IMG/VR virus record: IMGVR_UViG_2529293142_000020
Reading direction: 5' to 3' (one strand)
Source of the DNA: a virus
Taxonomy: Duplodnaviria > Heunggongvirae > Uroviricota > Caudoviricetes
DNA length: 41,055 nt
The position numbers were made by a program, and so were the translations under genes. Shown here piece after piece: positions 18,108 through 40,064 of this stretch. Every line of letters starts with the position of its first letter. Positions within the stretch are counted from its first letter, which is position 1. The notes beneath the pieces are model-generated. The model had not been told where the DNA came from and made no database searches. It was given only the letters and a program-made list of their open reading frames with translations.

Positions 18108-18540
18108 ATGTTTGGTATTTTTGGTAAAAAAAGCCCGCAGAGCGGTAACGGAAATTAAAAAGTTTGAAAAACGCGATCTGGCACAGGTGGTGATTAACGC
18201 CGCATACCTGGTGGCCTATGCAGATGGTGAATGTGAGGCTTCCGAGAAAGCGAAGATCGAACAGGTACTGCGTAATCAGCCTGCGCTGTACGCGTTTACG
18301 TCAGAAATTAATGCGATTAGCGCAACCATTATCGGTCAGCTGGATACGAACTTTAAAATTGGTCGTCGTGCGGCGTTACGTGAGATCGAGGATGTGAAAC
18401 ACGATACGCGTGAAGCGGAAGATGTGCTGGATGTGGCGGTGGCCATTGCGGAGGCAGACGGCGAAATTGAGCCGGAAGAGCGCAAGGTGCTGGAAGAGAT
18501 TGCCGGTGTTCTGGATCTTCGTCTGGAGAATCACCTGTGA
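18108..18540 (+). pseudogene. TerB-like domain protein with an apparent frameshift in an A7 tract (18126-18132)
   Basis: ATG at 18108 with AAGGAA SD reads MFGIFGKK then stops after 16 codons; the TerB-like frame (…ARRAVTEIKKFEKRDL… to 18540) is one base out of frame, and one fewer A would fuse them. Confidence 0.5.
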
Positions 18541-18704
18541 CGGTAAAACTGCGCCTGACTGTGGCTGCACTCCTGCTGTTTCTGGTGGTGATGGTGGATT
18601 TCACCAGCAGAATCATGTCGGTGCTGGCGGATGGGGGGCTGGTCTGCGGCATTGTGGTATTGCTGTGGCCGGTGATAAAAAGAAACAGCCTGCATAATGC
18701 TTGA
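18537..18704 (+). CDS. Small membrane protein (55 aa, 2 predicted TM segments)
   Basis: GTG overlaps the upstream stop (GTGA); hydrophobic LTVAALLLFLVVMV and GGLVCGIVVLLWPV. Confidence 0.35.
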   Translation: MTVKLRLTVAALLLFLVVMVDFTSRIMSVLADGGLVCGIVVLLWPVIKRNSLHNA

Positions 18705-19032
18705 TTTTTTTGTTTGCTGTTTATTAAAAACACTTCTGCATGGTGAATCCCCCTGTGCGGTGGGGCGACTGGTGTAGGTAGCATTTATTATGTTGTAGGC
18801 AAGCCGACGCGGGTTCAGTGACACCGGCTGAATTCACCGGGAGGCACCCGGCACCATGCTTTGCCACAAAAGTGTTATTTCTGTTTTTCTCAAACTATCA
18901 TCGTTATTCCTTTATTTCCGGCTGCGCATGGCGCGGCCTTTTCTTTACGACCAGCCACTGGCAGATGGTCATCCTGTGATTTGATTCCGGTTCCGGCTTT
19001 TTAACTCTGTTCCTGTACACGGGAGAAATTCG

Positions 19033-19203
19033 ATGTCGATTAAACATTACGATGTTGTCAGGGCGGCGTCGCCGTCAGACCTTGCGGAAAAGCTGACACA
19101 CAAACTGAAAGAGGCCTGGCAGCCGTTTGGTAGTCCGGTGGACATAACTCCTTATACCCTGATGCAGGCGATTGCAGCAGAAGGTTATGTGGTGGTCAAG
19201 TAA
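19033..19203 (+). CDS. Small hypothetical protein (56 aa); possibly the 5' part of a longer, frame-broken gene
   Basis: GGGAGA SD before the ATG at 19033; a protein-like but start-less reading frame continues at 19206-19379 in another frame. Confidence 0.45.
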   Translation: MSIKHYDVVRAASPSDLAEKLTHKLKEAWQPFGSPVDITPYTLMQAIAAEGYVVVK

Positions 19204-35977: not shown

Positions 35978-36522
35978 AAACGGGGGCTGAAGCCATCCGC
36001 GCACTGTCCACACAGGTCCCGGCGTTTCGTCAGAAACTGAATGACGGCTGGTATCAGGTGCGCATTGCCGGGCGTGATGCAGGTGAAACCGAATTATCTG
36101 CCCGTCTTAATGAGCCGCTGGCAAATGGTGCCGTGATCCACATCGTACCGCGCCTGGCGGGGGCTAAAAGTAGCGGCGTATTTCAGGCTGTGCTGGGGGC
36201 GGCGCTGATTGCGGTGGCATGGTGGAACCCTGCAGGCTGGCTGGGTGCTGCGGCTTTATCGGGCATGTATGCGGCAGGAGCCAGTATGATCCTGGGCGGT
36301 GTGGCCCAGATGCTGGCACCGAAAGCCCGGACGCCCACAGCGACCAGCACGGATAACGGTAAGCAGAACACCTATTTCTCGTCACTGGATAACATGGTTG
36401 CTCAGGGCAATGTTTTGCCTGTTCTGTACGGTGAAATGCGTGTGGGGTCGCGGGTGGTTTCTCAGGAGATCAGCACGGCAGACGAAGGTGACGGTGGTCA
36501 GGTTGTGGTGATTGGTCGCTGA
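35875..36522 (+). CDS. I: Tail tip assembly protein I (lambda gpI-like)
   Basis: MAATHTLPLASPGMARICLYGDLQRFGRRIDLRV... and C-terminus ...VLYGEMRVGSRVVSQEISTADEGDGGQVVVIGR resemble lambda I. Confidence 0.85.
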   Translation: MAATHTLPLASPGMARICLYGDLQRFGRRIDLRVKTGAEAIRALSTQVPAFRQKLNDGWYQVRIAGRDAGETELSARLNEPLANGAVIHIVPRLAGAKSSGVFQAVLGAALIAVAWWNPAGWLGAAALSGMYAAGASMILGGVAQMLAPKARTPTATSTDNGKQNTYFSSLDNMVAQGNVLPVLYGEMRVGSRVVSQEISTADEGDGGQVVVIGR

Positions 36523-36581
36523 TGAAAAACGTTTATGTGAAACCGCTTGCTGGCGGTTTTGTCGTTTATGGAGCATGACGA

Positions 36582-39500
36582 ATGGGTAAAGGCAGCAGTA
36601 AGGGGCATACCCCGCGCGAAGCGAAGGACAACCTGAAGTCCACGCAGTTGCTGAGTGTGATCGATGCCATCAGCGAAGGGCCGATTGAAGGTCCGGTGGA
36701 TGGGTTAAAAAGCGTGCTGCTGAACAGTACGCCGGTGCTGGACAGTGAGGGGAATACCAACATCTCTGGTGTCACGGTGGTGTTCCGGGCAGGTGAGCAG
36801 GAACAGACACCGCCGGAGGGATTTGAATCCTCCGGATCCGAGACGGTGCTGGGTACGGAAGTGAAATACGACACGCCGATCACCCGGACCATCACGTCGG
36901 CAAACATCGACCGTCTGCGCTTTACCTTCGGTGTGCAGGCACTGGTGGAAACCACCTCAAAGGGTGACAGGAATCCGTCGGAAGTCCGCCTGCTGGTTCA
37001 GATACAGCGTAACGGTGGCTGGGTGACGGAAAAAGACATCACCATTAAGGGTAAAACCACTTCACAGTATCTGGCCTCGGTGGTGGTGGATAACCTGCCG
37101 CCGCGCCCGTTCAGTATCCGGATGCGCAGGATGACGCCGGACAGCACCACAGACCAGCTGCAGAACAAAACGCTCTGGTCGTCATACACCGAAATTATCG
37201 ATGTGAAACAGGGCTACCCGAACACGGCACTGGTCGGCGTGCAGGTGGATTCGGAGCAGTTCGGCAGCCAGCAGGTGAGCCGTAATTATCATCTGCGCGG
37301 GCGCATTCTGCAGGTGCCGTCGAACTATAACCCGCAGACGCGGCAATACAGCGGTATCTGGGACGGAACGTTTAAACCGGCATACAGCAACAACATGGCC
37401 TGGTGTCTGTGGGATATGCTGACCCACCCGCGCTACGGCATGGGGAAACGTCTTGGTGCGGCGGATGTGGATAAATGGGCGCTGTATGTCATCGGCCAGT
37501 ACTGCGACCAGTCAGTGCCGGACGGCTTTGGCGGCACGGAGCCGCGCATCACCTGTAATGCGTACCTGACCACACAGCGCAAGGCGTGGGATGTGCTCAG
37601 TGATTTCTGCTCGGCGATGCGCTGTATGCCGGTATGGAACGGGCAGACGCTGACGTTCGTGCAGGACCGGCCGTCGGATAAGGTGTGGACCTATAACCGC
37701 AGTAATGTGGTGATGCCGGATGATGGCGCGCCGTTCCGCTACGGCTTCAGCGCCCTGAAAGACCGCCATAATGCCGTTGAGGTGAACTGGACTGACCCGG
37801 ACAACGGCTGGGAGACGGCAACAGAGCTTGTGGAGGACACGCAGGCCATTGCCCGTTACGGTCGTAACGTCACGAAGATGGATGCCTTTGGCTGTACCAG
37901 TCGGGGGCAGGCACACCGTGCCGGGCTGTGGCTGATTAAAACGGAGCTGCTGGAAACGCAGACCGTGGACTTCAGCGTGGGCGCAGAAGGGCTTCGCCAT
38001 GTACCGGGCGATGTCATTGAAATCTGTGATGATGACTATGCGGGGATCAGCACCGGTGGGCGTGTGCTGGCGGTGAACAGCCAGACCCGGACGCTGACGC
38101 TCGACCGTGAAATCACGCTGCCATCCTCCGGTACCACGCTGATAAGCCTGGTTGACGGAAGTGGCAATCCGGTCAGCGTGGAGGTTCAGTCCGTCACCGA
38201 CGGCGTGAAGGTAAAAGTGAGCCGTGTTCCTGACGGTGTTGCTGAATACAGCGTATGGGGGCTGAAGTTGCCGACGCTGCGCCAGCGACTGTTCCGCTGC
38301 GTGAGTATCCGTGAGAACGATGACGGCACGTATGCCATCACCGCCGTGCAGCATGTACCGGAAAAAGAAGCCATCGTGGATAACGGGGCGCACTTTGACG
38401 GTGACCAGAGCGGCACAGTGAATGGTGTCACGCCGCCAGCGGTGCAGCACCTGATCGCAGAAGTCACTGCAGACAGCGGGGAATATCAGGTGCTGGCGCG
38501 CTGGGACACGCCGAAGGTGGTGAAGGGCGTGAGCTTCCTGCTCCGTCTGACCGTAACAGCGGACGACGGCAGTGAGCGGCTGGTCAGCACGGCCCGGACG
38601 ACGGAAACCACATACCGCTTCACGCAACTGGCGCCGGGGAACTACAGGCTGACAGTCCGGGCGGTAAATGCCCGGGGGCAGCAGGGCGATCCGGCGTCGG
38701 TATCGTTCCGGATTGCCGCACCGGCAGCACCGTCGAGGATTGAGCTGACGCCGGGCTATTTTCAGATAACCGCCACGCCGCATCTTGCGGTTTATGACCC
38801 GACGGTACAGTTTGAGTTCTGGTTCTCGGAAACGCGGATTACCGATATCAGGCAGGTTGAAACCACAGCCCGCTACCTTGGCACGGGGCTGTACTGGATA
38901 GCCGCCAGTATCAATATCAAACCGGGCCATGATTATTACTTTTATATCCGCAGTGTGAACACCGTTGGCAAATCGGCATTCGTGGAGGCTGTTGGTCAGC
39001 CGAGTGATGATGCATCCGGTTATCTGGATTTTTTCAAAGGCGAGATAGGGAAAACCCATCTGGCTCAGGAGCTGTGGACGCAGATTGATAACGGTCAGCT
39101 TGCGCCTGACCTGGCTGAAATCAGGACGTCCATTACAGATGTCAGTAATGAAATCACACAGACCGTCAATAAGAAACTGGAAGACCAGAGTGCGGCAATT
39201 CAGCAGATACAGAAGGTTCAGGTTGATACAAATAATAACCTGAACAGCATGTGGGCAGTGAAGCTGCAGCAGATGCAGGACGGACGCCTCTATATTGCGG
39301 GTATCGGTGCCGGTATTGAGAACACCCCTGACGGCATGCAGAGTCAGGTGCTGCTGGCGGCAGACAGGATTGCGATGATTAATCCTGCAAATGGCAACAC
39401 AAAGCCGATGTTTGTTGGTCAGGGTGATCAGATATTCATGAATGAAGTGTTCCTGAAGTGTCTGACGGCTCCCACCATTACCAGCGGCGGCAATCCTCCG

Positions 39501-40064
39501 GCCTTTTCCCTGACACCGGACGGAAAGCTGACCGCTAAAAAATGCGGATATCAGTGGCAGTGTGAATGCGAACTCCGGGACGCTCAACAACGTCACGATT
39601 AATGAGAACTGTCAGATTAAGGGGAAACTGTCAGCCAATCAGATTGAAGGCGATATTGTCAAAACGGTCAGCAAGTCTTTCCCCCGCACGAGCACTTATG
39701 CCAGCGGCACCATTACGGTCACGATTAGTGATGATCAGAAGTTTGACCGACAGGTCATGATACCGCCAGTGTTATTCCGCGGTGGTAAGCATGAGAATTT
39801 CAACAGTAATAACCAACAGTCATACTGGTATTCAACCTGCCGGTTAAGAGTGACCCGCAATGGTCAGGAGATTTTAATCAGTCCACGACGGATACTCAGG
39901 ACGTATTTTCCTCAGTTATAGATATGCCTGCCGGACAGGGGACGCTGACACTGACATTCACCGTATCTTCATCAGGAGCGAATAACTGGACACCAACAAC
40001 CAGTATCAGCGATCTGCTGGTTGTGGTGATGAAAAAATCCACAGCAGGTATCAGTATCAGCTGA
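36582..40064 (+). CDS. J: Central tail fibre / host specificity protein J (lambda gpJ-like), broken into three ORFs by two compensating frameshifts
   Basis: ORF 36582-39602 (frame 0), 39562-39921 (frame +1) and a frame-0 tail to the stop at 40062-40064 are all J-like; breaks at the A6 run 39537-39542 and the T4 run 39872-39875. Confidence 0.85.

Follow-up and report, generated by a model that had tools for sequence, protein, structure and literature searches.

Frame breaks at homopolymer runs in an E. coli prophage: probable consensus miscalls, a majority TerB allele and a shared L variant

Results and Discussion

The frame breaks at homopolymer runs in the window (the whole stretch of 41,055 nucleotides analysed here, IMG/VR record IMGVR_UViG_2529293142_000020) most probably go back to three different causes, a reading to which we assign a probability of about 0.8: run-length miscalls in the tape measure gene and at both sites in J, a genuine allele in the TerB-family gene, and in L either a mutation or a recurrent undercall. 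The initial annotation had proposed one common cause for all five breaks, either sequencing or assembly errors or slippage-driven decay of a cryptic prophage, and such a single cause is not borne out. That the breaks are present in this E. coli prophage sequence was confirmed, and is an ordinary finding.

Position of the frame breaks

Frame switches were mapped by tblastn, using the intact proteins of a 98.97% identical prophage (L001) against the window. The five breaks fall exactly on the runs where they had been annotated:

18126..18132, + strand: A7 in the TerB-family gene, five codons in; the ATG at 18108 is out of frame with the body, which extends from TTG 18112 to 18540
33191..33196, + strand: A6 in the tape measure gene (30959-34197), one A missing; parts of 816 aa and 331 aa
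34638..34644, + strand: T7 in L (34531-35228), one T fewer than T8; parts of 67 aa and 165 aa
39537..39542, + strand: first break in J (36582-40064), A6, one extra A; stop at 39600-39602
39872..39875, + strand: second break in J, T4, one T missing; the original frame is regained 335 nt after the first shift

At 33190-33208 the tape measure shifts from frame 2 into frame 1, and at 34638-34665 L shifts from frame 1 into frame 3; J leaves frame 3 for frame 1 at 39538-39545 and returns to frame 3 at 39873-39876. It had also been claimed that the other structural genes are intact, and this holds: from terS/terL to I every other head and tail protein has its full length, with 14 of them at 100% identity by tblastn. 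The list of five is nevertheless incomplete, having overlooked homopolymer breaks at 7304-7308 and 15977-15981. These two and the remaining altered runs of the window are the following:

7304..7308, + strand: A5 in a YdaS-family HTH gene, just after the start; A6 elsewhere, A5 private to the window
13772..13776, intergenic: T5; T6 in the sister assembly (see below) and 15 loci
15977..15981, - strand: T5 in the gene of a 128-aa hypothetical protein; T6 elsewhere; product cut to 109 aa (ORF 15972-16301)
19765..19774, upstream of the holin gene: T5-G-T4; T6-G-T5 in the sister and 13 loci
29498..29503, intergenic, upstream of the major tail gene: T6; T7 in the sister and in all zero-substitution relatives

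At the first of these sites the 88-aa YdaS-like product (MHECLKKKIH...), which is present on 310 contigs, is lost, and an 85-aa ORF starting from ATG 7298 is left, whose product was found on none. The only other T5 at the 13772 site belongs to a distant relative (L199, 84% identical). The changes at 19765 and 19771 are two one-base deletions private to the window, and the 130-aa extended holin ORF was absent from the protein collection in an exact look-up. Concerning the run at 29498, the loci compared divide into T7 (35), T6 (34) and T8 (1), so that T6 is a common natural allele elsewhere.

The minus-strand 128-aa product occurs on at least 1000 contigs, while the 109-aa product occurs on a single Logan contig from run SRR057628, 2.3 kb long and matching window positions 15418-17721 at 100% identity. 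Since this contig was built independently, T5 at 15977 stems from some read set rather than from one assembler alone; it would be real if SRR057628 consists of accurate short reads of the same strain. A literature search on this run found nothing.

Comparison with a sister assembly

A near-identical assembly, GCA_000225185.3, offers a direct comparison. Its contigs AFDY02000046.1 and AFDY02000068.1 both terminate in the IS256-family element of the window, which indicates that prophage and insertion are the same in both assemblies:

12385-13699: IS256-family element with an 8-bp target duplication, common to other assemblies

We infer that this sister assembly derives from the same strain as the window. 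A search of the complete E. coli genomes in RefSeq gave no identical genome; the best match there is mosaic, at 98.8% identity.

Between window and sister there are 0 substitutions across 1-12798 and 13260-37211, a count that covers about 37 kb outside one patch in J. Over the same comparison the window shows seven one-base deletions, every one in an A/T run, including the change from A7 to A6 in the tape measure. Sister contig coverage ends at 38172, and the two J sites were therefore judged against more distant J alleles (95-99% identical). Counting these two, nine indels are private to the window, against 0 private substitutions over about 37.7 kb, and all nine are changes of one nucleotide inside A/T runs of 4-7. 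A/T runs of at least 5 make up 878 of the 37,718 aligned bases (2.3%) and contain 7/7 of the indels relative to the sister; under random placement this would have a probability of about 4e-12, so chance does not explain the indel positions.

We also counted the runs changed relative to the sister according to their length. None shorter than 3 was changed, and the fractions are 0/1692 for lengths 3-4, then, for A/T runs, 1/107 at length 5, 4/39 at length 6 and 2/11 at length 7. The frequency of change rises with run length and the changes are biased to A/T, although with 0/36 G/C runs of at least 5 changed the contrast between A/T and G/C is not significant by itself. At length 8 the count is 0/4, including the A8 of the G-T slippery site, a slightly unexpected result if length alone drove the errors, yet compatible with a rate of 10-20%.

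An over-calling of runs by the sister assembly was considered and rejected, because at each such site every other close relative, across many separate assemblies, has the run length of the sister. The seven deletions are thus absent from an independent near-identical assembly, and the J changes are absent in 29 and 14 relatives, respectively. Two sites are exceptions to this absence from other assemblies: T7 in L, which is shared, and T5 at 15977, which recurs in the Logan contig. Two differences from L001 were also examined as further errors and set aside: at 36532 (T3 vs T4) the difference is tied to a substitution haplotype and is common to L010 and L015, and at 22213 (G2 vs G3) the sister and near-identical assemblies agree with the window. 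Both are real allelic differences.

Run-length miscalls and the alternatives

In our interpretation, the tape measure A7 would have been read as A6, the A5 of J as A6 and the T5 of J as T4, and the six further single-base losses that the window shows in A/T runs would be consensus miscalls of the same class. In pyrosequencing, semiconductor, nanopore and early PacBio sequencing the run length is deduced from the size or duration of a signal, and long A/T runs are mostly under-counted; within a gene, such a miscount looks like a frameshift. On this reading the genes beneath the breaks are intact. The platform behind the window is probably of this kind. The AFDY genome project used 454 Titanium reads and the Celera assembler (PMC3491183); 454 consensus errors are biased to A/T runs and increase with run length (PMC3277595), and the same deletion bias is reported in long-read assemblies (PMC12007338). 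The changes in the window resemble homopolymer errors of 454, Ion Torrent, nanopore and PacBio-CLR data in being one-base run indels, A/T-biased, length-dependent and mostly deletions, and also in affecting both coding and non-coding DNA and in being absent from a second assembly of the prophage. They differ from such errors in two points: one site recurs in the Logan assembly, and all four 8-base runs agree in length with the sister.

The same data could be read as decay, all breaks being real and the cryptic prophage having been inactivated in this isolate by replication slippage at mononucleotide runs. Slippage indel rates do climb steeply with run length (PMC8510543), shared lesions do exist in this prophage (the IS insertion, the esterase deletion described below and possibly T7 in L), and T5 at 15977 is also present in the second assembly from SRR057628. 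Decay is nonetheless improbable as an account of all breaks: the nine private indels come with neither private substitutions nor nonsense mutations, the repaired proteins match intact ones on hundreds of contigs, intergenic and coding runs are affected alike, and seven of the indels are missing in a separate assembly of the same strain or lineage. Independently sequenced relatives share the IS insertion, the TerB A7 and the deletion in the esterase gene, but not the lesions of the tape measure, both J sites, 7304, 13772, 15977 and 19765/19771; neutral changes have not accumulated in or near the supposedly dead genes.

An excess of indels would be expected if the isolate was, or descended from, a mismatch-repair-deficient mutator enriching real homopolymer indels, given that runs acquire indels more often once mismatch repair is lost (PMC8510543). 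Even so, the ratio of substitutions to indels in these strains remains about 7:1, with about 0.85 indels and 6.02 substitutions per CDS in mismatch-repair-defective E. coli lines (PMC8510543), and here there are 0 substitutions. Under that spectrum seven indels in seven events would be expected with a probability near 0.124^7 = 5e-7, and we regard a mutator origin as highly improbable.

Tape measure and J

At the tape measure run A7 occurs in 112 loci and A8 in one (L007), so that run length varies elsewhere too, while A6 occurs in the window only; the sister has A7, surrounded by 0 substitutions. With the run restored to A7, the tape measure is identical to a 1079-aa protein that occurs on 224 contigs, and the truncated N-terminal product was absent in an exact look-up among 15 billion proteins. 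Taken together, the alleles give good support to the view that this break is an assembly error. The repaired L protein also matches a known one residue for residue, and these two matches indicate that no other damage has accumulated in the putative pseudogenes.

The first J run is A5 in 29 loci, whose J alleles are 95-99% identical, and A6 is unique to the window among 30 sequences; the second is T5 in 14 loci, and T4 is unique to the window among 15 sequences. Between the two shifts the shifted frame is 99.1% identical to intact J. Since the J C-terminus is mosaic in the window, run lengths were compared and not whole-protein identity. By exact look-up in the protein collection both the N-terminal and the middle fragment of J were absent, and the repaired J protein was not found there either. 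That both changes (A5 to A6 and T5 to T4) are assembly errors is likewise well supported by the allele comparison. A compensated, functional double frameshift was also considered for this +1/-1 pair and was rejected, the intervening frame containing the stop at 39600-39602. For the tape measure and both J breaks, private and on a zero-substitution background, the error reading of the initial annotation is upheld.

The shared run in L

T7 in L is carried by the window, the sister (AFDY02000068.1), JACFML010000050.1, CP039404 and the IMG/VR locus L127, and being common to the sister and three other assemblies it is not an error private to the window. T8 occurs in 9 loci, so that T7 accounts for 5/14 of the assemblies with a pure T run. 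The majority of L genes carry TTTTTTCT at this position, so that T8 arose in this prophage lineage through a synonymous change (TTC to TTT). The repaired (T8) L protein is an exact match on 37 contigs. Because T7 is shared in this way, we choose neither of the readings offered by the initial annotation: at this longest T run of the tail module, T7 might be a true slippage mutation of the lineage, or the same undercall might have been made independently several times.

As a separate observation, CP039404 is itself full of homopolymer discrepancies.

The TerB-family gene

Translation from the TerB ATG at 18108 meets a stop after 16 codons, and the 142-aa body lies in the +1 frame from TTG 18112. 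In the 68 loci compared, the spacer reads A7 59 times, A6 5 times and A5 twice, with AAAGAAA and AAAAAG once each. The exact 142-aa product is present on 45 contigs. In O157:H7-type lambdoid phages the same gene (WP_001303509.1) has the same A7 run and the same TTG-start annotation as the window; in the TR01 prophage the A7 is identical and the RefSeq start is the TTG. A few amino acids differ between the window and WP_001303509.1, and the minority A6 alleles keep the ATG in frame; homologues with an in-frame ATG begin MFGIF... or MGFFGF.... On these counts A7 is a real and widespread majority allele of E. coli prophages, and here the error reading falls. The body is under purifying selection, with a pN/pS of 0.18 in 12 full-length A7 alleles. 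A7 would then be an old allele, translated from TTG 18112 instead of the ancestral ATG, or still expressed in some other way. The dominance of A7 over A5 and A6, together with the interrupted AAAGAAA variant of the same length, argues for stable inheritance.

This polymorphism above a selected body could still suggest that the runs are functional, serving programmed frameshifting, transcriptional slippage or contingency loci for the tail genes and TerB, all the more as length variants of the L T8 and the tape measure A7, which may themselves be errors, exist in other assemblies and a genuine programmed -1 site lies within the same module. That site, A AAA AAG at 30601-30608 in G-T, gives an open G-T fusion and is A8 in 63/66 loci; it is the only place where a conserved out-of-frame arrangement with both frames open was found, and none was found at the tape measure, L or J. 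Xu, Hendrix and Duda reportedly described in 2004 a conserved programmed -1 frameshift in the tail assembly chaperone genes G/GT. The breaks resemble it in being a frame change at an A run within the tail module, but the G/GT site is conserved and needed in every relative, while relatives keep their reading frame at the five reported sites. In-frame relatives amount to 112/115 for the tape measure, 63/68 for L (in-frame 8-nt variants counted), and 29/30 and 14/15 for the two J runs; with nearly all relatives in frame, recoding at these genes is neither needed nor conserved. The shifted frames soon meet stops, and runs of 4-7 are short for efficient slippage. Functional runs are an extremely improbable explanation.

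Inherited lesions

The lesions of the prophage that do look inherited were not the ones counted as decay in the initial annotation. One is the IS256-family insertion and the other is a deletion:

19199..19208, + strand: junction of an internal loss of about 1.5 kb in a nanS-p-type (DUF1737 + SASA esterase) gene

A possible sixth break had been placed at 19195-19206 and described as not lying on a long run. It does not lie on a run; it is the junction of this deletion. The remnants of the gene are a 56-aa N-terminal ORF (19033-19203) and a C-terminal piece reaching to about 19379, and the alignment to O157 TR01 omits L004 positions 2096-3609, within the 616-aa esterase gene. The near-identical assemblies L018 and L020-L025 have the same junction, without an indel there, and the 56-aa DUF1737 ORF is called in them; the deletion is a real inherited lesion. 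In these two lesions, to which T7 in L may be added, the window resembles lambdoid prophages of E. coli and Shigella, whose genuine decay takes the form of IS insertions, internal deletions and frameshifted tail genes. It differs from such decay at the tape measure and J, where the breaks occur in no relative and come without substitutions, nonsense codons or amino-acid drift.

Implications

Most of the breaks would be artefacts, and caution is needed: an annotation that took the sequence at face value would describe a cryptic prophage with a defective tail and count its tape measure, L and J genes as pseudogenes. A near-identical sister, the ratio of indels to substitutions, a census of run lengths and an exact look-up of the repaired proteins together offer a cheap way to separate errors from pseudogenes without reads. 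Beyond the artefacts little real biology would remain, namely the common start-site allele of TerB, the deletion in the esterase gene, the IS insertion and perhaps a frameshift in L. More tentatively, and with a rather low probability, the L T8 produced by the TTC to TTT change may be a genuine hot spot of slippage, inactivating a tail gene again and again, and the TerB A-run may act as a start-codon switch or make expression slippage-dependent. If this were true for both, changes in run length would recurrently switch a tail gene and an accessory gene on and off in this prophage family.

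Organization of the prophage

The window is a lambdoid prophage of E. coli, arranged as follows from left to right (window coordinates):

1-1020, minus strand: integrase
right of the integrase: exonuclease, 826 aa
right of the exonuclease, left of the IS256-family element: immunity and replication region
12385-13699: IS256-family insertion sequence, 1315 bp; transposase 12457-13665; terminal repeats GAGCCTGT...
between this element and the tRNA genes: DUF968, RusA and Q genes
17695-17935, right of Q: three tRNA genes
right of the tRNA genes: TerB-family gene, then lysis genes
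right of the lysis genes: HK97-type head module
lambda-type tail module: tape measure (30959-34197), M, L (34531-35228), K, I, J (36582-40064) and Lom

The insertion sequence is bordered by an 8-bp target duplication, AAATCCCT (12377-12384 and 13700-13707), and flanked by a hok-like gene and a 92-aa gene; it is absent from the relatives L033, L034 and L037, and contigs of GCA_000225185.3 and FBUT01000082.1 end within it. The tRNA cluster reads Met-Lys-Arg, versus Ile-Arg-Arg in O157. Between it and TerB lies a G8 run (~18018-18025), as long in the sister assembly GCA_000225185.3, which is G11 in O157 TR01 and G12 in the locus L199.

Verification of the frame breaks

The initial annotation had placed five frame breaks at homopolymer runs, in TerB (A7, 18126-18132), the tape measure (A6, 33191-33196), L (T7, 34638-34644) and J (A6, 39537-39542, and T4, 39872-39875), and all five runs are exactly as described. 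Alignment of the intact proteins of L001, a 98.97% identical prophage of strain 2015C-4136CT1, located the changes in the window as follows:

33190-33208: frame change in the tape measure
34638-34665: frame change in L
39538-39545: frame change in J, whose original frame is regained at 39873-39876

The remaining structural genes are intact as claimed, all being full length and most 100% identical to the L001 proteins. A possible sixth break at 19195-19206 involves no run: it is a deletion junction, where the alignment to O157:H7 TR01 jumps 1.5 kb within a 616-aa DUF1737/SASA esterase gene, and represents a real inherited deletion. The tail module also has one homopolymer at which a frame change is truly programmed, and there the window length is correct: A8G at 30600-30608 closes the tail chaperone gene G and contains the slippery heptamer A AAA AAG, where slipping by -1 opens a G-T fusion through to 30913. 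Of 66 loci, 63 have A8 at this site.

Comparison with a sister assembly

GCA_000225185.3 was reached through exact-protein look-ups. Its contig AFDY02000046.1 spans window 1-12798, ending in the IS transposase gene, and AFDY02000068.1 begins in the same element and spans 13260-38172; since both stop in the same insertion, they represent this very prophage, IS copy included, in the same strain or a very close sister. There are no substitutions over 1-12798 and 13260-37211, and all seven that exist are confined to a 530-bp patch of J (37212-37743). These also set the window apart from L008, L010 and L015, and the patch looks like recombination or like a J copy of another prophage collapsed in short-read assemblies. 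Seven A/T runs are one base shorter in the window, and at each site the sister length is backed by near-identical drafts (L008, L010, L020-L025, L033-L037).

Runs that differ between sister assembly and window (position: sister, window)
7304: A6, A5
13772: T6, T5
15977: T6, T5
19765: T6, T5
19771: T5, T4
29498: T7, T6
33191 (tape measure): A7, A6

Changed runs by class, window versus sister assembly
Length 3-4: 0/1692 (shorter runs likewise none)
A/T, length 5: 1/107
A/T, length 6: 4/39
A/T, length 7: 2/11
A/T, length 8: 0/4
G/C, length at least 5: 0/36

The change at 7304-7308 deletes the start (MHECLKKKIH...) of a YdaS-family gene, which nevertheless looks intact because an internal ATG still gives an 85-aa ORF. 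The one at 15977-15981 cuts a minus-strand gene from 128 aa to 109 aa. This class of change thus occurs in early, late and intergenic DNA, which fits an error process better than selective decay of tail genes. Among these private changes the weakest evidence for error is the intergenic T run at 29498-29503, upstream of the major tail gene, whose length varies among prophages (T7 35 times, T6 34 times, T8 once).

The 109-aa product occurs once in the protein collection, on a 2.3-kb Logan contig assembled from SRR057628 and matching window 15418-17721 at 100% identity, so the shortened run is a property of a read set, beyond one assembler's consensus. If SRR057628 holds the error-prone reads behind the window itself, this match adds nothing; if it consists of accurate short reads, this one deletion would be real.

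Run lengths were also counted in IMG/VR scans and all fetched loci. The tape-measure run is A7 in 112 loci and A8 in one, the first J run is A5 in 29 loci and the second T5 in 14 loci, while the lengths A6, A6 and T4, respectively, are found in the window only.

TerB

In TerB, ATG 18108 leads to a stop after 16 codons and a 142-aa body continues in the next frame from TTG 18112. Homologues with an in-frame ATG (starting MFGIFKKK... and MGFFGFAKK...) confirm a shift out of the ancestral frame at this run. The A7, however, is a genuine allele, both old and common: the spacer is A7 in 59 of 68 loci (A6 in five, A5 in two, AAAAAG in one, and AAAGAAA, of the same length as A7, in one), O157:H7 TR01 carries the same ATGTTTGGTATTTTTGGTAAAAAAAGCC with TTG as its RefSeq start, and 45 contigs encode exactly the 142-aa product of the window. 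A pN/pS of 0.18 among 12 distinct full-length A7 alleles suggests continued expression of the body, for which the TTG four bases 3' of the ATG would be the simplest start. About half of the IMG/VR A7 alleles (31 IMG/VR loci, e.g. L232) have a nonsense codon (GAG→TAG) 37 codons past the run and so form a true pseudogene allele, widespread in one clone.

The run in L

The T7 of L is shared by the window, the sister contig, JACFML010000050.1 (4 substitutions versus the window over 10.7 kb), CP039404 and the IMG/VR contig L127 (97.5% identical); T8 is present in nine loci. Most L genes have TTTTTTCT at this site, so the pure T8 is a lineage-specific synonymous variant. The loci L007, L008 and L010 have zero substitutions versus the window and yet carry T8, and T7 is therefore either a very recent, recurrent mutation or a repeated under-call, with about even odds. 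CP039404 (L002; NZ_CP039404.1, strain 377323_2f, locus 5828-18333) is a RefSeq 'complete' genome in which four structural genes (terL, tape measure, M and L) are annotated as frameshifted, with some ten extra one-base differences from the window and L001, the majority at G/C or T runs of 2-8. Probably this is a further assembly with many errors, covering the same phage module within an Stx2f phage.

In L007 (Logan SRR12852093 contig 63, locus ~9988), which has no substitutions versus the window over 11.5 kb, the L run is T8, the intergenic run T7 and the tape-measure run A8, a frameshift in the opposite direction that may be a real variant or an error. At 19523-19529 and 20453-20459 the window and sister have A2-G-A6 and T7, and six other near-identical assemblies A3-G-A7 and T8. 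The shorter lengths may mark the lineage or be errors that both assembly versions of this strain share, an ambiguity like that of the L run.

Sequencing error or decay

Natural divergence in E. coli consists mostly of substitutions. Even mismatch-repair-defective mutation-accumulation lines show about 6.02 substitutions versus 0.85 indels per CDS (PMC8510543), so that at their indel share seven indels in seven events would have a probability of about 5e-7. Slippage-driven decay of a cryptic prophage, the other cause initially proposed, would also produce breaks at runs, but as a common cause it is contradicted by the lack of substitutions, by indels spread over coding and intergenic runs alike, and by the repaired genes: with one A restored the tape measure exactly matches a protein on 224 contigs, with one T restored L matches one on 37 contigs, and exact-protein look-up revealed no further damage in either.

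The A/T bias, length dependence, predominance of deletions and lack of substitutions agree with descriptions of 454 consensus sequences (PMC3277595) and long-read assemblies (PMC12007338). In the project behind the AFDY genome, 454 Titanium reads were assembled with Celera (PMC3491183). We infer that the window may stem from an assembly of the AFDY strain or lineage that was early or for other reasons prone to error, with the corrected lengths in the later AFDY02.

Homopolymer miscalls thus best explain three of the five breaks (tape measure and both in J) and six previously unreported run changes; the explanation fails for TerB, a normal allele, and stands at about even odds for L. The biology is ordinary and nothing new, while the break pattern is correct as observed and clearly non-random.
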